IMG/VR virus record: IMGVR_UViG_3300033145_000771
Coordinates: 1 to 56,094 of that record
Source of the DNA: a virus
Taxonomy: Duplodnaviria > Caudoviricetes
Length of the DNA stretch: 56,094 nt
Direction: 5' to 3' (one strand)
Below the pieces are notes generated by a model. It saw only the letters and a program-made list of their open reading frames with translations, ran no database searches and was not told the DNA's origin. Shown here piece by piece: positions 1,394-11,572 of this stretch (positions are counted from its first letter, which is position 1; every line of letters starts with the position of its first letter). Both the position numbers and the translations under genes were made by a program.

Positions 1394-2365
1394 TTACTCA
1401 TCTTCAGATTCGCCTACTAAGCTTGGCCAGCTACCGATAGCCCGACCTTGGTCGTCTTTTTTGACTTCTCTCTTAGCAGGAGCAGGGTCTTCTTCAAGGC
1501 TCTTTTTGGTTCCGGCGGGTTGGCCTTCAATAGTTTTCAGCCTCTTAGAAACGTCGGTCAGCTGCTCGGTAATCGTTGTTAGCTGGTCAGAAGTTTCCTT
1601 CTTTTCAAGTTGGCCGGTGATAGCAGCTACCGATTTAGCTAAATCCTCAACAGTCTGTTTGAGTTCCGAGGAATTATCATCGGTCTTCGATGTATCTGCT
1701 TTCTTTGTGGGCAGCAACGCCTGAGCTTCTGCAATCAAAGTCTCAAGCTTCTTCGTTTGCTCATCAGAAGCTTTATCAACTTTTTCCGAATCTGCTTTTT
1801 CTGTCGGCTTGTAACCTTGACCAGCATGAATAGCAATTAAACCAATTGCCGCACCGAGGTCAGTTGGAAAGTCGTCTTTGTAACCTTCAATAGTCTCCAG
1901 AGCCTTTACGATTTCGGTTATCGTCGCTTCGTTAAACTCTGCTTTTTCGAATTTGGTGATCTTCTCACCGAACGTCTTTTCTATAATTTTCTTAATTCTT
2001 TCGTCCATAGGACTGTCTCCTTTTGCGAGGTAGTAAGATTCGGTACGTTGAAAGCCACCTTCAGATTCTACGAGTTTGGAGTAAGAACAGCTAACCGAAG
2101 AATCATCAGGAGATTCACTCCAGACGCTGAAATTAAAGCTCTTCATATTAGCTATTTTTTCACCGTTAACTGTAACCGTAGTATTTTTCTTTGTACCGTC
2201 ACTTTCTATCTCAATGTTAATTTTCTTTTTTGCCTTCAAGAGAGAACCATCGCTTGGCTTCCCTTCTTGTTTGAACAATAGAAATGGTCTCTTGTTCGCA
2301 GGTTTGTCTACAAGAGACACTTCTTTAAGCGTGATATCTTTCATCTTTCTGCTTTTTTCAATCAT
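1394..2365 (-). CDS. Capsid scaffold-like protein with N-terminal protease-strand motif EVSLVDKPAN
   Basis: AGGAG RBS before ATG 2365; charged coiled-coil C-terminus; directly upstream of capsid gene. Confidence 0.7.
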   Translation of the reverse strand: MIEKSRKMKDITLKEVSLVDKPANKRPFLLFKQEGKPSDGSLLKAKKKINIEIESDGTKKNTTVTVNGEKIANMKSFNFSVWSESPDDSSVSCSYSKLVESEGGFQRTESYYLAKGDSPMDERIKKIIEKTFGEKITKFEKAEFNEATITEIVKALETIEGYKDDFPTDLGAAIGLIAIHAGQGYKPTEKADSEKVDKASDEQTKKLETLIAEAQALLPTKKADTSKTDDNSSELKQTVEDLAKSVAAITGQLEKKETSDQLTTITEQLTDVSKRLKTIEGQPAGTKKSLEEDPAPAKREVKKDDQGRAIGSWPSLVGESEDE

Positions 2366-2376
2366 TAGCAAAACTC

Positions 2377-3354
2377 CTAATCTGTTCTTGCGTAACCTGC
2401 CATTGAATAACCTGTCAACTTGCCCTTCTTGATCGCTTTCCAGATCTTGTTGTCAAGTATTCTGGTAACTAATACCCATGAGCCTTTCTTGACCGACTTT
2501 CCTTCGATCACAAAGTCTACAGGAGCAAGATAGTTCTCCAGTATTCGTACCTTAACATTCTTACCTTTGTGCATCACCTTGAAGGTTTGTACTTTTTCCA
2601 TAAACTGATACGCAGCTTTACGGATTTCCTCTGCATTCGCTTCGTCGCCTTGACTGTCTTCTTCATCCGGCTCGTACACAATACCGTAGACAATGCGCTC
2701 CTCTTTCTTAGTAGCTTTAAGAAGAGGTATAAAAGACACTTCTTTCTCAAACATCGGCTTACCGAGTTTGGAAGAACTTTCTACTTTTGGCATTTCTACC
2801 TTCTCTACTTTACAAGCTGGACGCAAAACCTTATCGAACAATGGAATGCAGTCACCACTAAAATCGGTCGTATAGACAAACACACAAGGCTTATCAAGCT
2901 GTTCACCAAGCATCTTGGTAATCGATTCTTCTAAAACCTCGTTTGGCTCGTCTTCATTAGACCATATAACAACCTCTACATCGTCGTTCTCCGCGGTAGC
3001 GAAATCTTCTTTGATAAGCACGGCCACTTTATCTAAGACAATTGGTTTGAATTGAGCAATATCTAAACCGACTCTCTTTATCTCCATCGCTTTTTTGAAT
3101 GCCTGCCGATCGATTGGCTCAGTGCTGTTCTCTAAATCTCGATTACGCATTACTTTCAACAGCATTCTGTATTTCGCTATAACGTCATTACGGTTAAGAC
3201 TTCCAACAACAATATCTTCGCTCTTCTCAAAGTGTTTGTTCCATAGGCCCATGAATCTCAATTTAAGCACATGCAACTCTCTGTCAGAAGCTTTGTTCAA
3301 CTGTTCATGTTCCAAGTCTTCTATACGTAATTTAATCTTATCGAACATATTCAT
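2377..3354 (-). CDS. XkdF-like prohead serine protease core with long N-terminal extension
   Basis: IVYGIVYEPD..D.QGD, MH, ENYLAP, KKGSWVL, IKKGKLTGYSMAG motifs. Confidence 0.85.
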   Translation of the reverse strand: MNMFDKIKLRIEDLEHEQLNKASDRELHVLKLRFMGLWNKHFEKSEDIVVGSLNRNDVIAKYRMLLKVMRNRDLENSTEPIDRQAFKKAMEIKRVGLDIAQFKPIVLDKVAVLIKEDFATAENDDVEVVIWSNEDEPNEVLEESITKMLGEQLDKPCVFVYTTDFSGDCIPLFDKVLRPACKVEKVEMPKVESSSKLGKPMFEKEVSFIPLLKATKKEERIVYGIVYEPDEEDSQGDEANAEEIRKAAYQFMEKVQTFKVMHKGKNVKVRILENYLAPVDFVIEGKSVKKGSWVLVTRILDNKIWKAIKKGKLTGYSMAGYARTD

Positions 3355-5279
3355 TATCCTTTGATTTTTTGGTTTGGAACTCTATGTCTAACTTTCGGCT
3401 TTGCTACAACAGGCTTCGTAGGCTTAACCGTAGGTATCTTCCCAACAGGAGGTTTACCACTAAGCCCTCCTTTGTGACCAAGCTTGCGTAGAGCACGGCT
3501 GATCTTGCTTGATTCGGCAGGACCTGCCTCCTCTAATTTATTGAGCAGACTCTGCACTTGTCCATCATGCAGTCTATCCGGCATAATACACGATGCGTTT
3601 GCCACTTCTCCCGGAGACCCCTGGCAGGGAGGTAAATCATTAACAACGGGCAGCATGGCACATCGGCAATTATGACTTGCAATTCCATTAGCAATATAGT
3701 ATGATTCGGTTGTTTCTAAATTGTAAACATAATTACTGAAATTAAAGGAGTTGATATGTACAACCGAATCGACAAAGAAATCGTTACACAAATTGTCAAT
3801 TTGTACGTTTCCGGATGGTCCGAAAATAGTGTTGCTCTGCATTTTGGATATAGCAGACGCTGTATTCGCAAACGTCTTTTGGATTCCGGTATTCATATCA
3901 GGAACCAAAGCGAGGCCGAAGCACTCAAATGGTCGCAAATGAGTCTTGAGCAACGAAAGGAACAAATTAAAGCTGCTCATGATGCGGCTAAGGGTCGGAC
4001 TGTAAGCTGGTCTACCAAATGCAAACATGCAAAAACGGTCGAAAAGAGACCAAGCAATGTCTCTGAATACGAGATTGTTGTTCAACGAAAGCTGTTTGTT
4101 AGAGGCATTCCGACCATCGCTCAGAAGGCTATCGGTGCCTATAATTGCGATATTGCTGCCAGTCCCGTCATAGTGGAAGTCTGGGGCGGAAACTGGCACT
4201 TCTTTGGTGATCACGCCCGGCGATGCGAAGAACGACTCAGCTATATCCTCAATTGTGGTTGGTTTGTTTATATCCTGCCAATCACTAAAAGATTCCCCCT
4301 GACGGAGGCCATGGCTGATAACTTGGCTTCCTATATCAAGCGAATTCGCAGGGACAAACCCTCTATTCGAGAGTATAGGATGGTTTGGTGTGGCTCTGAT
4401 TATACGACCAGTGGCTGTCTTGATAATATGAATTTTCCCCTTGTACCAACGTTTACTGGCCGCCGTAATCCTGCCTCTGGGAGATATGAGAGAATCGCCC
4501 GGTAGGCAATTTGGGTGGACAGGTATTATCCCTTTTGCCTCCGCTGCGGAATATCTTGTTTCATCCAAACCTAAACAATCGCCACAAGCACCCGGAGAAG
4601 CTGAGAATTCAACTTCAGTGACTCCCACATCTTCTAAGCCTTGTACATAGCCTATATTCTGGGCACGGGCCGTTTCGGTCCGGGCTATGGTAGCTGCACG
4701 CCTTCGGTGGGTCTTGCCGGCATATCGCTGGACCTTCTTATTAATATCGGCCGGCTTTAACTTTGGATACTTTTCTTTGTTCTCAAGAAGCCTGCGATAA
4801 TTGATAATCGACTGCGTTTGATTCTCTGTCAAGCCTACTAAGGGACGGAGTTCGCGGGCAATTTTCGGCATTCCCCGGCCTTCCTTTATCCCGGTTTTAA
4901 TGTAGGTACGAATGCCCATCTTCGTTTTCTTCGTGACTTCTCGTACCAATTCAGCGGTAAATTTTTCAGCAGCAGTAACTGCATTGACATTAAGTACGTC
5001 AAAAGCACCCTTTACCTGAAGTAACTTATAGGCATTATTTCCGCCTGTCTGCATGATTTTTAATGTAGCGGGTTTAAGCATCTCCCGTCCACGTTCCTCG
5101 ATGAAACCCCAATCGGATAACTCGGATGTAATATCCTTAATAAATTTATGTGTTAAGTCGTGACGGATCTGCTTATGGGCAAAATAAAACCAACTACGCA
5201 CAGCAATTAGCATAGTATTCTTATTCCTGCCTACTAAGCTGCTTAAATCACTCTGAATTGTCTTAGCTATAGTAATCAC
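3354..5279 (-). CDS. Minor head morphogenesis protein (MuF/SPP1 gp7-like) containing an intein
   Basis: RAATIARTETARA, C-x2-C, and HPN|CRC motif split by an intein. Confidence 0.85.
   Translation of the reverse strand: MITIAKTIQSDLSSLVGRNKNTMLIAVRSWFYFAHKQIRHDLTHKFIKDITSELSDWGFIEERGREMLKPATLKIMQTGGNNAYKLLQVKGAFDVLNVNAVTAAEKFTAELVREVTKKTKMGIRTYIKTGIKEGRGMPKIARELRPLVGLTENQTQSIINYRRLLENKEKYPKLKPADINKKVQRYAGKTHRRRAATIARTETARAQNIGYVQGLEDVGVTEVEFSASPGACGDCLGLDETRYSAAEAKGIIPVHPNCLPGDSLISPRGRITAASKRWYKGKIHIIKTATGRIIRATPNHPILSNRGFVPANSLDIGSQVISHGLRQGESFSDWQDINKPTTIEDIAESFFASPGVITKEVPVSAPDFHYDGTGSNIAIIGTDSLLSDGRNASNKQLSLNNNLVFRDIAWSLFDRFCMFAFGRPAYSPTLSRIMSSFNLFLSLLKTHLRPFECFGLALVPDMNTGIQKTFANTASAISKMQSNTIFGPSGNVQIDNLCNDFFVDSVVHINSFNFSNYVYNLETTESYYIANGIASHNCRCAMLPVVNDLPPCQGSPGEVANASCIMPDRLHDGQVQSLLNKLEEAGPAESSKISRALRKLGHKGGLSGKPPVGKIPTVKPTKPVVAKPKVRHRVPNQKIKG
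3677..3705 (+). promoter_or_regulatory. Sigma70-like promoter for antisense endonuclease
   Basis: TTGCAA(3677-3682)-17 nt-TATGAT(3700-3705); AAGGAG RBS at 3745-3750. Confidence 0.6.
3756..4505 (+). CDS. HTH + Vsr/DUF559-like PD-(D/E)XK endonuclease, antisense inside the MuF intein
   Basis: HTH (LYVSGWSENSVALHFGYSRRCIRKRL); SEYE...YNCDIA..VIVEVWGGNWH...LNCGWFV; RBS and promoter. Confidence 0.8.
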   Translation: MYNRIDKEIVTQIVNLYVSGWSENSVALHFGYSRRCIRKRLLDSGIHIRNQSEAEALKWSQMSLEQRKEQIKAAHDAAKGRTVSWSTKCKHAKTVEKRPSNVSEYEIVVQRKLFVRGIPTIAQKAIGAYNCDIAASPVIVEVWGGNWHFFGDHARRCEERLSYILNCGWFVYILPITKRFPLTEAMADNLASYIKRIRRDKPSIREYRMVWCGSDYTTSGCLDNMNFPLVPTFTGRRNPASGRYERIAR

Positions 5280-5521
5280 CGGCTTATAATTACCCCCTGA
5301 CGAATCAGTTTATTAAAATTATAAGCTTCAATTCCTTCAACAACTACACTCTGCACTGCCCGTTCAAACTGTTGCTGCTCAAGCTCTTTAGCCCGGGCAA
5401 CTCGCTTATTGGCAGGTTTGCATTTGTGCATCTTTTTCTTCTCTTCAAATTCTGCAAGACAAGCTGCCTCGAATTCTTCGCCACAATCACTACAAACAAA
5501 AGTTTCGATTTTTACGGTCAT
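5276..5521 (-). CDS. Small Zn-finger protein
   Basis: C-x2-C...H-x-C; in late operon. Confidence 0.55.
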   Translation of the reverse strand: MTVKIETFVCSDCGEEFEAACLAEFEEKKKMHKCKPANKRVARAKELEQQQFERAVQSVVVEGIEAYNFNKLIRQGVIISR

Positions 5522-5660
5522 GTTCGGCTTTAGCCTCTTTTATACTTGCTTCTTCATCGAAAAATTTCACAGTCTTTACTCTGTCTTTTCTGAAGTTGAC
5601 AGTTCGTTCACAAAGATACGTTTGAGCTACTTTCACTCCACTTCTATCAGTATCAGACAT

Positions 5661-6263
5661 CTATTCCCCAAAATCAGTCGATGGAAAGAACGCGCCGTCT
5701 GCCAATCTCCCAGTGCGTAATGATTTAGTAGGCAATGTGACCCTCTGCCTGTTTTTCACAGCCTGAACCCACACACGTTGCGCTCCTTTGGAATAGGCAT
5801 CAGTAAGAACCGGAGGTTCGGCTGGATACAATATTGGCGGACTATCAGTAACAGCTAAAACTAAAAGTGTTCGGCTATCACTTAAACCGATAATATTCGT
5901 AGCAGTCAAATTCAAATAATGAACGCCAACTACTGGTGCCATAAAAATGAAGTCAAAGTGTTGGCTCCATCCGCCTCCCAACTCCTTGACTTTATCTCCT
6001 TTGGTTACTGTTATTCCTTCCATGCCGGTAATAGTCAACTCTGTATCAAGCCCCCATTCGTTCCAAGCCGCCACATGATACACACTTGAAATATTTGGCC
6101 CGGTAATCGTCCACGCCATTACATCGCTATCGCAACAATTGACGTCATATTCAAACGGAACGTCGTATGGAATCGGAGGTCGTTCAATAGCTCCAGCTAA
6201 ATTTACCAGTCCATACATTAGCATGAATATAACAAAAGCAATCAACCAGATGTACAACTTCAT
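5661..6263 (-). CDS. Hypothetical membrane or secreted protein
   Basis: N-terminal hydrophobic helix; coupled to portal stop. Confidence 0.55.
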   Translation of the reverse strand: MKLYIWLIAFVIFMLMYGLVNLAGAIERPPIPYDVPFEYDVNCCDSDVMAWTITGPNISSVYHVAAWNEWGLDTELTITGMEGITVTKGDKVKELGGGWSQHFDFIFMAPVVGVHYLNLTATNIIGLSDSRTLLVLAVTDSPPILYPAEPPVLTDAYSKGAQRVWVQAVKNRQRVTLPTKSLRTGRLADGAFFPSTDFGE

Positions 6264-7621
6264 TCTATTTCTCCTTCCAAAAATACTTCTTCTGCTTTGC
6301 TTAACAATTCGTCCGGTTCTCCCACTTCAACAAAGGCAGAACCTATGTAAAATTTATCGCCTTCTGGATATCCTTTTCCTATGCCTAAATCTCTTCGTGC
6401 TTCATTCGGTGTTTCAATACCATGCTCAACTAAGGAATTATGTTGTGTTACCTCAGCATCGTAGTTGCGGCAATCTATATCATTGAATTTGAACTCATAA
6501 ATTTCCGATTGCAATAGTTTATCGTTTATAATTTCTTCGAGGTCCAACTGCAATGGCTCAATTACGCTTTGCACATAGATCTTTGTCGCCTCAGATGCAA
6601 CATTACCACCTAACTTGCCTATTACTCTAACCCCTATTCTTTCAGGCGGCATAGAATATGCGATCATAATATTGTTCCGGCGCTCCTGTTCGTACAGCTT
6701 AAAACTACCTTCTTTTGGATTTCCTACGAGAGGTGTGTATATGAACTTGCATCCATCCGGTTGTTTAACGACCATAGTGCTATGAGCATTTTCTGTTCCT
6801 CGAAGTCTATTATTAACAAATTGCTTTACTTGCTTATCAGATCCTTCTTCCCACTCTCCTTCAAGAACAATAATAGCAGCAGGGATGCCATAATTCTGAA
6901 AGAACGCTAAGTTATAATCTCGTTGACTGATTGCTCCAATCACATCTCCAATAGCAGGAAGCACGTCTGGGACACCGTAGTAATCCGAACGAGGGTAGTA
7001 ATTCTTATGAAAGATTAATTCGTTAGCGGCATTTGATTTAGTTTTGCTTTCTCTTCCGTCCTTCGCTGTAATATCTTTTTCGTAGCCGAACTTTTTGAAC
7101 CATACCTTTTTGGTGTCCCGAATCTGGCAGTATTTGTTTTTCTCTCGATGGACTTTTATAGTATAAGCAGGTACATGATAAATTTCCGCTACATGCTCTT
7201 TATCTTTAGCGCGAATAACTTCTAAACCGAACCATCCGATTGAGCCCCAATCAATAAGCAGCTCCTTCAATACGGCACGAAAAGAACAACCTGGATTAGG
7301 GTGTTCTAAGAATGCTTGAATCCTTTCGAGTTCTGTTTTGTCATCCTTCTTATCTGTTCGAAGTTGCAGTGACCAACCAAGTCCTGCTACGTCGATTGCA
7401 ATCTGCTTAACACAACGAGCGAAAGTAACGTTGGACTCAAGCAACACTAAGAACGCTGCAGGAGAATACGGAGGTTCAACTAAGCCTGCCTGAGTCAAAA
7501 ACTGTTGGTTTTGCTTAAGCTGCTTGCTGCTCTCTTTCTTTGCTTTGGCCAATAGATCGTAAGCGTAAATACCTTTAGTTGTCTGAACCAATACGTTGCC
7601 TTTTTTCTTTTCCTCAGCCAT
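6260..7621 (-). CDS. Portal protein (PBSX/HK97-like)
   Basis: HPNP, YYGVPD, FFQNYGIP, MPPERIG, TPNEAR motifs. Confidence 0.9.
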   Translation of the reverse strand: MAEEKKKGNVLVQTTKGIYAYDLLAKAKKESSKQLKQNQQFLTQAGLVEPPYSPAAFLVLLESNVTFARCVKQIAIDVAGLGWSLQLRTDKKDDKTELERIQAFLEHPNPGCSFRAVLKELLIDWGSIGWFGLEVIRAKDKEHVAEIYHVPAYTIKVHREKNKYCQIRDTKKVWFKKFGYEKDITAKDGRESKTKSNAANELIFHKNYYPRSDYYGVPDVLPAIGDVIGAISQRDYNLAFFQNYGIPAAIIVLEGEWEEGSDKQVKQFVNNRLRGTENAHSTMVVKQPDGCKFIYTPLVGNPKEGSFKLYEQERRNNIMIAYSMPPERIGVRVIGKLGGNVASEATKIYVQSVIEPLQLDLEEIINDKLLQSEIYEFKFNDIDCRNYDAEVTQHNSLVEHGIETPNEARRDLGIGKGYPEGDKFYIGSAFVEVGEPDELLSKAEEVFLEGEIE

Positions 7622-8380: not shown

Positions 8381-11300
8381 TCATGCTGACACCGAACCTT
8401 TCTTTCTTGGTCTGTCTACGGTGTACAATATGTACCGTACAACGTCAAGCGTATGGTCGTTTTTCGCCAAAGGTAAATCTTTAGGATCCCTAGAGGCGGA
8501 GCCCTTTGGGTATTGGTACATGGCCATCTCCCGAGCTGTATTCCGGCAGGACTTAAAGATATATAAGCTCGGCTTCCCATTCGCCTTAACTTTGAGTTTA
8601 CTTTGTACAAGTTCAATACCACGAGCCACATCGTTTCGAGCTATCAGAGTAGGTATGCCGGCTTTGCGAAGCTCGCCTCTGTCCTCAGCATTTTCAGGGT
8701 CTGCGTAAGTTCCTTGATATTTCTCATTAGAACTTCTCGCTTTGATATTAGCAATATGCTCCTGAATGCCGGTTTTGGCTCTGTAATATTCGCGATATAC
8801 ATACCAGTTCTCATCCTTATCCTTAGCAAGCCACAGACAATTGCCACAAACCATCGGCCTGCCTCTACGCCTAACGACTAAAGTATTATACTTAGGAACT
8901 TCAACACAAAATATCATATCGTTATAATCTATTGACATGATTTTCATTTTTTGTACCGCAGCCAACTTAGCTTTGCAAATAGTAAGAATATAATAATCTC
9001 GCATTCCAGAATAACCTGCTGTCTTTGACGTTTTGATAGTCGTAGATTTTCCCAACAAAGCATAAACTTCCTGTAAATCATCTATTAGATTTTTACAAGT
9101 AGAAAAGTGCTGCATTCTATTTCTATCGCTTACTCCATCCCCCATCAAATGTCCTTTGACTAAGTTTTCTAATTCATCCCGACCCCAACTATAAATTTCT
9201 CTTGGAATATTCTTATTCTTATTCGGCGACCATTTTGTATTATTTAAGAACCAACTCCATAAATCTTTGCTTTGAATCCGATAATCTTTTACTCTATTAT
9301 CTGAGATTGCAGTTGTATATTTCCAACCGAGATTATTTAGTATTCTTTCCACTTCCTTACATTTTGTTTTTTGAGCAATTCTTACAAACCAACCGGCTTT
9401 ACCTTTAAGAAGCGATCCGTCAGCAAGCCATAATCCTACAAATTCAGCGAATGCGGTCTTATTTACAGGAGATAGAATGGTCTTAGAACGTTTTCCATGA
9501 GGTACTATAAAATCAACAGTCTTTTTGGCTGATATAGTGTTCCACCCTACAGGTATATCATAACAAGACAATTTTTCAGCAGGTACAAATTTCCATTTCT
9601 TTGGCTTTCTTCTATCTACAACCACCATCTTATGATTGGGCGTTACACAAAAGTTAGCACTTTCAACTCTAGGTGTACTAATTAACATTTTCCCTTTGTA
9701 TCGCTGTTTAATATATTTAACTGGTTTTTGATATTTTATTATTTTTGAAAGAGGATCTATAGTGGCAACTTTTTCTTTTTTATTAAGGTTAGCAAACAAT
9801 TTCCACCCTTCGTTAGTTAATATCTCTGTTTCTTTATCGTAGCAGACGAAAGGATTGGTAAAACCAAAATCAATACCTCGGTAGAGTGTCCAACCATCTG
9901 GAATCCTGAAAGGCTTTATAACATGTATCGAACGGTTGAAGTTTTTATATACAGCGCCATAATAGCTTGCGAACTTACCCTCAATACGAGTAGCCTGCAC
10001 TCCGTCCGGCCACTCAGCAATCATATTATCTATTCGTTGATCCTCTATAAACCCTCCTCGACTCTTCCTGTTATCGTTTAAGTTGAAATGAAATATTTCG
10101 TCTGTTGCGGGTAGTTCCTCTATTCTTTCTTCTAAAAAGGTTTGAGGCATAATAGGTGTCATGCTCCAACTGAGATAACCCTGATAAGTTATCAGTCGTG
10201 CTTGAGTTTCATGTAGTATGCCTTCGAAATCATGGAGACACTGTTCGTCGTAATGAGCAGATTTTATTGCTCTTCCCTGAAACAATGTTCGTCCCTGGTT
10301 GAATGCTTTGAACTCAATGGTATTGCCTGTATTTAAATATATTTTACGAGGCACTTTGTCCTGACCATAACGAATATCAATAATATGATGTTGAGGAATG
10401 AATTTCTGAAGATACTGTTCCCATAGAATATCTCGAACTTGTTCCCAGGTCTCAATTCCTACCCAATGAATTCCTTTAGCTTGCTTAAAAGGATGAATAT
10501 TGAGAGCTAACTGTGCGAGATCCATCATATTGGTATATGTTTTCCCGCTGTTGTGATGAATAACGCCACCTGACAAATAATTGTGATAAATAGGCACATT
10601 AAAATCCCAAATATCATCAAATCTCTTTACATCCAAACTAATTACCGCTATACTGTCATTTGATTTTAATTTAGGAGAATTACATGAAACGTAAGCATCC
10701 TGTTCGTGATCGTGGCCTACCACGGAAATGTTATGATTACCCAGTCGATTCAATCCGCCAATGGATTGCTGAGGGCAAAACTCAGGCATGGATTGGCAGT
10801 AAACTTGGAGTTGATGCAAAGTTAATTCATAAAGTTTGCAAAAAGCATGGCATAAAGTGCCAAAGAACCGGTCCGCGTTCCGGGCCTGAATGCCTATTTT
10901 GGAAAGGAGGTCGAATAATCGATAAAGACGGCTATGTCTCTGTCTATTGTCCGGGGCATCCTTATGCCAAAAAGCCAAACAAGAAGTATGTCCTTGAACA
11001 TCGCTTGATAATGGAACTTTCTCTTGGCCGTTACTTAAAGAGATACGAAATTGTCCATCACAAAAATGGGATAAGAAATGATAACCGTCTTGTAAATCTT
11101 GAGCTTTTTCATTCAAATGCAGAACATCTTCACAAGGAACTAAAGGGTCATTGCCCGAAATGGACGAAGGCTGGAAGAGAAAGGATGTTGGCTGGAGTTG
11201 TGAAATACTGGTCCAATTACAAAAAGAATCTAAAACCAAATGATTCGCCGAGCAAACAATAGATTGCCCATTTGACAGCTTGAGTTCATATAGCTGCGCC

Positions 11301-11572
11301 GGTGTTTTCTTAAATGGCTTATCTGCTTTTGCAATAACCTTCTTTTGTCCATCGAAAGCGTAAACATGAAATGGCTTATCTATGCTGGATACTTCTTTTT
11401 CTATTTTTTCTACAGGATCGTAAATCAATTGTTCTCCGCCTAAACACAAGTTGCCTCCGAACATCCATTGAATAGCGGCCTGCGATTTGAAATAAGCTCG
11501 TTGATCCTCGCTAAGAGGCTTATATAAAGCAATGTGTTTGCCTACTCGCTTTATTTGTTCCACACTAAGCAT
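8381..11572 (-). CDS. terL: Terminase large subunit with two inteins
   Basis: Spliced Walker A GGNL|SGKT, Walker B HYDEQ, SMTP, nuclease GIDFGFTNPFV|CLW, DHTLDVVRY. Confidence 0.95.
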   Translation of the reverse strand: MLSVEQIKRVGKHIALYKPLSEDQRAYFKSQAAIQWMFGGNLCLGGEQLIYDPVEKIEKEVSSIDKPFHVYAFDGQKKVIAKADKPFKKTPAQLYELKLSNGQSIVCSANHLVLDSFCNWTSISQLQPTSFLFQPSSISGNDPLVPCEDVLHLNEKAQDLQDGYHFLSHFCDGQFRISLSNGQEKVPLSSDVQGHTSCLAFWHKDAPDNRQRHSRLYRLFDLLSKIGIQARNADRFFGTLCHAFCKLYELTLHQLQVYCQSMPEFCPQQSIGGLNRLGNHNISVVGHDHEQDAYVSCNSPKLKSNDSIAVISLDVKRFDDIWDFNVPIYHNYLSGGVIHHNSGKTYTNMMDLAQLALNIHPFKQAKGIHWVGIETWEQVRDILWEQYLQKFIPQHHIIDIRYGQDKVPRKIYLNTGNTIEFKAFNQGRTLFQGRAIKSAHYDEQCLHDFEGILHETQARLITYQGYLSWSMTPIMPQTFLEERIEELPATDEIFHFNLNDNRKSRGGFIEDQRIDNMIAEWPDGVQATRIEGKFASYYGAVYKNFNRSIHVIKPFRIPDGWTLYRGIDFGFTNPFVCYDKETEILTNEGWKLFANLNKKEKVATIDPLSKIIKYQKPVKYIKQRYKGKMLISTPRVESANFCVTPNHKMVVVDRRKPKKWKFVPAEKLSCYDIPVGWNTISAKKTVDFIVPHGKRSKTILSPVNKTAFAEFVGLWLADGSLLKGKAGWFVRIAQKTKCKEVERILNNLGWKYTTAISDNRVKDYRIQSKDLWSWFLNNTKWSPNKNKNIPREIYSWGRDELENLVKGHLMGDGVSDRNRMQHFSTCKNLIDDLQEVYALLGKSTTIKTSKTAGYSGMRDYYILTICKAKLAAVQKMKIMSIDYNDMIFCVEVPKYNTLVVRRRGRPMVCGNCLWLAKDKDENWYVYREYYRAKTGIQEHIANIKARSSNEKYQGTYADPENAEDRGELRKAGIPTLIARNDVARGIELVQSKLKVKANGKPSLYIFKSCRNTAREMAMYQYPKGSASRDPKDLPLAKNDHTLDVVRYILYTVDRPRKKGSVSA
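8840..9844 (-). mobile_element. Terminase intein 2 (335 aa) with in-frame LAGLIDADG endonuclease
   Basis: CYDKETEILT...VTPNH...FVGLWLADGS...GHLMGDG...VCGN|C. Confidence 0.9.
10626..10654 (+). promoter_or_regulatory. Sigma70-like promoter for antisense HNH
   Basis: TTTACA(10626-10631)-17 nt-TATACT(10649-10654); AGGAG RBS at 10673-10677. Confidence 0.65.
10684..11262 (+). CDS. HTH + HNH endonuclease, antisense inside terminase intein 1
   Basis: WKGGR..DKDGY, YVLEHRLIME..LGR.L...EIVHHKNGIRNDNRLVNLEL. Confidence 0.9.
   Translation: MKRKHPVRDRGLPRKCYDYPVDSIRQWIAEGKTQAWIGSKLGVDAKLIHKVCKKHGIKCQRTGPRSGPECLFWKGGRIIDKDGYVSVYCPGHPYAKKPNKKYVLEHRLIMELSLGRYLKRYEIVHHKNGIRNDNRLVNLELFHSNAEHLHKELKGHCPKWTKAGRERMLAGVVKYWSNYKKNLKPNDSPSKQ

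Follow-up and report, generated by a model that had tools for sequence, protein, structure and literature searches.

A putative Vsr-like homing endonuclease encoded antisense to a phage MuF intein and overlapping its splicing domain

Antisense LAGLIDADG endonucleases in inteins were reportedly described by Gorbalenya in 1998 and by Gogarten in 2002. The stretch analysed here (the window, IMG/VR record IMGVR_UViG_3300033145_000771) is the complete 56,094-bp record, with direct terminal repeats, of an uncultured virus. Its MuF head morphogenesis gene contains an intein, and the opposite strand of the intein DNA carries an open reading frame (ORF) of 249 amino acids (aa) for a putative homing endonuclease with a Vsr-like fold. 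The features discussed are located in Table 1.

Four published accounts frame this locus. A preprint by Gosselin, Arsenault and Gogarten (10.1101/2025.01.02.630785), which also cites the earlier reports of antisense LAGLIDADG endonucleases in inteins, describes antisense VSR-like endonucleases in inteins of actinophage minor capsid proteins (MuF-type, IPR006528). In the portion available, these endonucleases match 3R3P in HHpred, their ORFs typically lie outside the splicing domain, and their proposed origin is a free-standing endonuclease that invaded an intein. VSR-like endonucleases are stated there to have had no prior report in inteins other than split inteins, and are listed as antisense only. 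The second account concerns I-Bth0305I, the EDxHD-family endonuclease encoded on the sense strand of a group I intron in a phage recA gene (Taylor et al. 2011, PMC3239194; PDB 3r3p). The third describes fractured genes, in which a free-standing Vsr-like or GIY-YIG endonuclease gene separates the halves of a split intein (Dassa et al. 2009, PMC2677866). The fourth reports the ShiLan insertion in a phage methylase, within which an HNH endonuclease is hidden out of frame (Arsenault et al. 2025, PMC11855218). Literature searches for antisense endonucleases in inteins returned, besides the preprint, only the I-Bth0305I and Dassa papers as relevant.

As a kind, then, an antisense Vsr-like endonuclease in a MuF intein is already known. 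The window shares with the actinophage inteins of the preprint, so far as its available text describes them, three features: a contiguous intein in a MuF or minor capsid protein; a separate antisense ORF; and a Vsr-like fold. It differs in coming from an uncultured 56-kb virus rather than a PhagesDB actinophage, and in the reach of its ORF, which begins opposite the C-terminal splicing region and crosses splicing blocks A and B to the second intein codon (Leu2). Added here are a wider distribution, codon avoidance, frame-specific selection, a cistron co-extensive with the mobile unit, and the overlap with the splicing blocks; within the preprint text available, neither a distribution beyond actinophages nor a codon-level selection analysis was found.

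The other systems are less close. I-Bth0305I has in common with the window endonuclease a Vsr-like fold, an N-terminal helix-turn-helix (HTH)-type region followed by a C-terminal nuclease, a phage host and residence in a self-splicing element; it is, however, read from the sense strand of a group I intron, whereas the window gene is antisense in an intein, and the sequence similarity between the two is not significant (E 0.25). In the Dassa fractured genes too, which are found mainly in phages, the intein harbours a Vsr-like gene that has its own expression signals, and the coding sequences of endonuclease and intein parts overlap. A fractured gene of that split-intein type can be ruled out for the window, where one continuous 641-aa frame, open in 158 of 160 relatives, runs opposite an antisense endonuclease. 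The antisense LAGLIDADG inteins share the position opposite a contiguous intein, but belong to another nuclease family and other host genes. ShiLan resembles the window in that the host frame reads through an insertion whose nuclease occupies another frame of the same DNA; unlike the window, its nuclease is an HNH enzyme on the same strand, with no splicing domain. Finally, the Escherichia coli Vsr mismatch endonuclease (1vsr, 1cw0) has the same nuclease-core fold (Z 11-12), but is a repair enzyme that lacks both the HTH module and the mobile context.

The host gene lies between genes for an XkdF-type protease and a portal protein. Its product matches two Pfam families, Phage_Mu_F (E 7e-6) and Intein_splicing (E 1.6e-10; 41.4 bits against a cut-off of 35.8), and a PHROG head protein family (E 6e-43). 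The intein begins directly after ...IPVHPN: its Cys1 codon TGC is the antisense of GCA at 4506-4508, and the preceding 4509-4511 is the antisense of AAT, the Asn of HPN. It ends with ...IASHN at 3669-3671, followed by Cys+1 at 3666-3668. All residues expected of a class-1 intein are found: C1; T40-P-N-H43 in block B; H279-N280; and Cys+1. The four residues C1, H43, H279 and N280 are invariant in an alignment of 77 inteins. Compared with the Mtu RecA mini-intein and the hedgehog autoprocessing domain, the modelled intein has a HINT fold (Z 13.0-13.1; 107-108 residues superposed; root-mean-square deviation, rmsd, 1.6-1.9).

The pLDDT (predicted local distance difference test score) of the AlphaFold model divides the intein. 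It exceeds 90 for residues 1-60, is 81 for 61-70, rises to 85-96 for 241-280, and falls below 50 for residues 143-236. The Pfam scan of the whole MuF product gave only Intein_splicing and Phage_Mu_F, so that the claim made from the sequence at first sight (the original prediction), of a middle section with no recognisable domain, holds up, with one nuance. Residues 80-128 (about 4125-4271) lie opposite the nuclease catalytic core and are not among the roughly 107 residues superposed on HINT domains, yet the model gives them a helix and two strands at pLDDT 62-91. This order may be an artefact that stems from the conservation enforced by the opposite strand, or may be a small real sub-structure. 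By the model, the intein middle is mostly a disordered passenger peptide.

Table 1. Features of the window, with positions on the whole stretch
Feature	Positions	Strand	Basis or remark
MuF / SPP1 gp7-type head morphogenesis gene, intein included	3354-5279	minus	641-aa single open frame
N-extein, 257 aa, ends ...IPVHPN	4509-5279	minus	98% identical to intein-less allele P0021
Class-1 intein, 280 aa, insertion site HPN/CRC	3669-4508	minus	sequence, alignment, HINT fold; missing exactly from P0021
Intein C-terminal splicing region, residues 241-280, blocks F and G	3669-3788	minus	pLDDT 85-96, subgroup alignment
C-extein, begins CRCAMLPVV, stop codon included	3354-3668	minus	joined directly to HPN in P0021
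249-aa ORF, HTH and Vsr-like (EDxHD-type) putative homing endonuclease, TAG included	3756-4505	plus	homologs, fold, selection
N-terminal helix-turn-helix module, residues 1-47	3756-3896	plus	VIA-align Z about 7; relatives match HTH Pfam families
Vsr-like nuclease domain, residues ~100-221	4053-4418	plus	Foldseek, VIA-align, invariant residues
Endonuclease stop TAG, antisense of intein Leu2 codon CTA	4503-4505	plus	sequence
Shine-Dalgarno AAAGGAG, 5 nt before ATG 3756	3744-3750	plus	sequence
Sigma-70-like TTGCAA-17-TATGAT (TTGCAA 3677-3682, TATGAT 3700-3705)	3677-3705	plus	weak evidence
Doubly coding stretch: intein residues 1-68 (blocks A, B) on minus, endonuclease residues ~184-249 on plus	4305-4508	both	
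Terminase large subunit gene	8381-11572	minus	N-terminal intein, Pfam residues 72-341, about 10550-11446
192-aa HNH_3 ORF, antisense to N-terminal terminase intein	10684-11262	plus	E 1.3e-8, AGGAG upstream, HTH-like N-terminus

Several lines of evidence mark the plus-strand ORF as a real gene that has been conserved. It shares its codon register with the minus-strand MuF frame (offset 0); the next longest antisense ORF in region 1500-7500 has 121 aa against its 249, and the other two plus frames across it hold 5 and 19 stops at a moderate GC content. A word-indexed search recovered 19 full-length homologs, 39-88% identical, and almost all of these share the C-terminus ...R-I-P-R. With a profile of 77 sequences run against 1.84 billion proteins, cluster representatives numbered 11534, 2965 and 1313 at E<=1e-3, 1e-10 and 1e-30, respectively; pattern scans found at least 529 relatives in IMG/VR and at least 529 in metagenome contigs. 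Residues E106, D132, E141, H148 and R160 are invariant among the 77 sequences, and the window protein keeps all of them.

Its AlphaFold model (mean pLDDT 89.3) agrees with the PD-(D/E)XK, Vsr-like fold that had been proposed. The top Foldseek match is the catalytic domain of I-Bth0305I, 3r3p (E 4e-4; TM 0.61 on target), followed by Vsr and then the DUF559 protein 3hrl. VIA-align superposes model residues 100-221 on Vsr 1cw0 (Z 12.0; rmsd 2.2; 113 aligned), and also matches 1vsr (Z 11.3) and 3r3p (Z 10.2; 93/97 aligned). Residues 1-47 match the HTH domains of GcrA, Pax, Tc3 and resolvase. Among the 77 relatives, 44 match the Pfam family PF18741 (MTES_1575), the best at E 3e-8.

How are both strands kept readable? 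In the codon-aligned phase only three plus-strand sense codons, TTA, CTA and TCA, would stop the intein frame. By construction, none of the 1580 Leu or 1466 Ser codons in 100 open loci is of these kinds, against 12.6% of Leu and 10.3% of Ser codons in the adjoining N-exteins. Of 160 related loci, 158 have a minus frame that runs without a stop for the full length of the endonuclease match, L031 and L150 being the exceptions; host codon usage predicts a chance of about 10^-1.6 (about 2%) per locus, and dual coding therefore extends beyond chance. The endonuclease stop (TAA or TAG) is the antisense of the Leu2 codon beside Cys1, mostly after x-H-P-N, in 100 of 119 loci; the 119 are distinct endonuclease DNAs, window included, left after de-duplication of 157 loci with a stop found. 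In the window itself the TAG at 4503-4505 abuts the Cys1 codon at 4506-4508, and the original prediction of an ORF end 3 nucleotides (nt) from the N-terminal splice junction can be read directly from the sequence.

Selection on the two frames differs along the gene. Through endonuclease residues 1-195, variability peaks at the plus-frame third position, and conservation is stronger in the plus protein than in the minus. There, single-base codon changes silent only in the plus frame outnumber those silent only in the minus frame by 1779 to 599, pair counts that are not phylogenetically independent. In residues 196-249, opposite blocks A-B, the two silent classes are balanced (363 versus 406), and within 4305-4508 the variability of codon positions flips or evens out. 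About 55 endonuclease codons, the last of the gene, lie in register opposite blocks A-B, which were rightly identified at the outset as codon-aligned dual-coding DNA; at the other end, about 11 codons and the ribosome-binding site lie opposite the C-terminal splicing region. Since the Vsr alignment reaches residue 221, part of 196-249 seems to encode folded elements on both strands.

In related inteins the plus frame is kept open rather than broken by stops. The loci gathered with the endonuclease as seed are circular on this point; among 80 loci gathered with the intein, the 3 inspected by hand comprise two full-length plus ORFs, one of them motif-degenerate (L240, 253 aa), and one ORF cut to 110 aa.

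The start of the gene also falls within intein codons: the antisense of 3669-3788 contains the endonuclease ATG, its Shine-Dalgarno sequence and promoter-like hexamers. By a heuristic that chooses the best candidate start per locus, a Shine-Dalgarno-like motif is present in 58 of 99 related loci. In 36 of the 99 the ATG lies 60 nt from the intein C-terminal end, as the antisense of His in GHVYNLE, and the N-L-E codons supply a GAGG or GGAGG 8 nt upstream. In a subgroup of 20 loci, the window among them, the endonuclease starts at +87. A search of sequencing runs for the stretch found no RNA run that holds it, and six DNA runs with a 0.05 share of its words; this is a blank, not evidence.

The argument for mobility comes from three other MuF loci. 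A search with the N-extein found P0021, a 361-aa MuF allele (641 minus 280) in which HPNCRC is contiguous; 253 of 258 aligned residues (98%) are identical to the window N-extein. At L081 the intein is shared and the host gene is not: the intein DNA is 90.5% identical to that of the window (840 nt), the N-extein 66% (770 nt) and the C-extein 53% (189 nt), with identity falling from 0.92 to 0.62-0.68 in the bins beside both intein junctions. The L081 endonuclease is 88% identical to that of the window. L178 carries a shortened 188-aa intein at the same MuF site (L178:1501-2064), and its antisense ORF of 110 aa (minus strand, 1504-1836) retains neither the HTH nor the first half of its nuclease core, which suggests, from sequence, an intermediate on the way to a mini-intein, late in a homing cycle. 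Together, P0021, L081 and L178 suggest a homing element caught at different stages of its cycle. On these comparisons, the unit that appears to move is exactly the intein. The exact empty-site allele and the identity cliff at both boundaries thus lend support to a homing endonuclease, as was first proposed.

These observations are best explained, at a probability of roughly 80%, by a mobile intein in MuF, with a homing endonuclease encoded in a gene of its own on the other strand. The minus strand, open throughout, would be translated straight through to a 641-aa precursor. The HINT domain (intein residues ~1-68 and ~241-280) would then splice out and join HPN to CRC, yielding a 361-aa MuF protein; splicing is presumed from the intact catalytic residues, the HINT fold and the empty-site allele. 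The ~170 residues between the two halves would be mostly a passenger peptide, an antisense reading of the endonuclease that is largely disordered and kept only stop-free. From the plus strand would come the 249-aa protein, an N-terminal HTH joined to a Vsr-like nuclease of the I-Bth0305I (EDxHD) type. With ribosome-binding site, ATG and stop all within the intein DNA, the whole cistron would move with the intein. In a mixed infection, the nuclease presumably cuts MuF alleles that have no intein, at the conserved HPN-CRC codons or close to them, and recombinational repair would copy intein and endonuclease into the cut allele.

Beyond the non-independence of the pair counts, several points weigh against this explanation. 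The window protein matches no nuclease family in Pfam at E<=1 (Vsr PF03852, DUF559 PF04480 or PF18741); a separate search of the window for PF18741 found no match, its PHROG matches are weak, and phmmer with the single protein against PDB sequences returned nothing at E<=10. The family profile matches PDB sequences weakly (3hrl, E 0.028; 3r3p, E 0.25), and the 3r3p alignment, the only one at residue level, is too weak to match E106, D132, E141 and H148 to the EDxHD motif. The empty allele P0021 could reflect precise loss of the intein instead of its gain. Part of the L081 identity gap, though not its sharp edges, could come from dual coding, which slows divergence. The GG-x-WH motif segment is altered or missing in all three cultured phages compared (below), so some family members may be inactive. 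Then there is the promoter. The original prediction was right that TTGCAA-17-TATGAT exists opposite the C-terminal codons of the intein, but as a promoter it does not stand out: it is a 9/12 match, and 11 such sites occur in 2.1 kb where 3.7 are expected. Taken alone, it is no more than chance. TTGCAA recurs in 14 of the 20 loci of the subgroup and TATGAT in 12, but this conservation says nothing about a promoter, because the same bases are the IASHN and ESYY codons of the intein.

Could the plus-strand gene be a former homing endonuclease, inactive in this phage, its remnant held open mainly by the constraint of the intein frame? The poor promoter-like site would fit, as would the altered catalytic motifs of cultured-phage relatives, the decay by deletion at L178 and the degenerate motif in an otherwise full-length L240 ORF. 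The window protein itself, however, retains every family-invariant residue. Moreover, substitutions favor the plus frame 3:1 across residues 1-195, where the minus strand encodes disordered passenger, and the transfer looks recent, given the cliff from 90% to 66% identity and an empty allele still 98% identical. Inactivity in this phage is therefore unlikely.

Somewhat less likely again is a functional protein with a role other than homing: an HTH regulator, a nuclease for phage-phage competition, or antisense control of late MuF expression. An HTH is indeed present at the N-terminus, and a position antisense to a late structural gene would allow transcriptional interference. Yet the family lies within an open minus frame in the examined loci, and its ties are to the intein and not to a host function, as the stop at the second intein codon in 100 of 119 loci indicates; among solved structures, the one that Foldseek puts nearest belongs to a proven homing endonuclease; and what appears to move is the intein exactly. 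It is very improbable that the ORF is a mere shadow of an in-frame intein domain, open by chance or codon bias: long shadow ORFs do arise most easily in this phase, where only three sense codons give antisense stops, but the plus protein is the better conserved of the two, is modelled at pLDDT 89 against less than 50 for the minus middle, matches a nuclease fold with an HTH, and has a Shine-Dalgarno sequence and ATG in a region where the other plus frames are littered with stops (5 and 19).

The explanation by a mobile intein with an antisense homing endonuclease invites a more tentative extension, for which the odds are somewhat unfavorable: that the two genes are mutually locked by design. 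The cistron would be exactly co-extensive with the mobile unit, would be active in any MuF allele it entered, and could hardly decay without damage to splicing. The idea draws on three coincidences: the stop is the Leu2 codon; the ATG and Shine-Dalgarno sequence are made from codons of the block F region (HVYNLE in many relatives); and the last Vsr strands lie opposite block B. If true, locking would explain why the antisense form is wide and long-lived (37-88% identity, both frames intact), as against the usual cycle of endonuclease decay. It would also make this a natural instance in which the same codons, read on opposite strands, encode two folded protein segments.

The family extends into cultured phages. 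By tblastn, the endonuclease is found in 120 phage records, all at less than 60% identity: Salmonella 62, Pseudomonas 15, Gordonia 8, Klebsiella 8, and others. The matches underlie coding sequences named minor head, MuF-like or hypothetical. Three records were compared: Aggregatibacter phage Aaphi23, Gordonia phage Fosterous and Salmonella phage vB_SenS_SE1 (AJ560763.1, MH976510.1 and MK479295.1; L161-L163). All three annotate only the MuF gene on the opposite strand and no antisense ORF, although their plus frames are open for 253-340 aa. (The stop at Leu2 is present in SE1 only.)

The same insertion site can hold another element. In P0030, a MuF homolog with an N-extein 62% identical to that of the window, a different intein occupies the HPN/C site and carries an in-frame, sense-strand DUF559/MTES_1575 (Vsr-like) domain. 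This nuclease core and the window antisense endonuclease are weakly similar (32% over 56 residues; E 0.007). Among MuF homologs at 55-65% identity, many (for example P0024, P0031 and P0044) are without an intein and carry instead, at the C-terminus, PF03496 or PF01129, Pfam domains of the ADP-ribosyltransferase type. Such MuF-toxin fusions are already described.

Other inteins are present in the same phage. The terminase large subunit gene contains two. Antisense to the N-terminal one lies the HNH_3 ORF, which, set against the MuF case, is not codon-aligned with the intein frame. This ORF has 188 homologs and, in an alignment-based search, 571 relatives in IMG/VR; a single-protein locus search with it gave only 3 distant loci. 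In all six related loci sampled the HNH ORF lies wholly inside a minus-strand ORF of 696-1161 aa; where minus-strand ORFs around HNH relatives were scanned, Intein_splicing was found in 3 of 3 (one over the cut-off) and terminase domains in 2 of 3. The preprint, in its available part, lists four architectures that include in-frame HNH but not antisense HNH (10.1101/2025.01.02.630785), and a literature search beyond it for antisense HNH endonucleases in inteins found none. The arrangement in the terminase may thus be a new variant. In the second terminase intein, at residues about 575-915, an in-frame LAGLIDADG_3 match covers residues 806-868, and PHROG matches to intein-bearing RNR and ThyX families span residues 575-912. 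By these matches, the phage appears to carry three inteins with three types of endonuclease.

Together, the evidence from selection and mobility indicates that a homing endonuclease can live antisense to a contiguous intein, in an arrangement that is common in phage head-morphogenesis genes well beyond the actinophages. The locus is a compact natural example of constrained dual-strand coding, in which the endonuclease shuns three sense codons so that the intein reads through, and its gene is a hidden one of the sort that annotation pipelines miss. Moreover, the intein-plus allele and its 98% identical empty counterpart form a ready test pair for homing assays.

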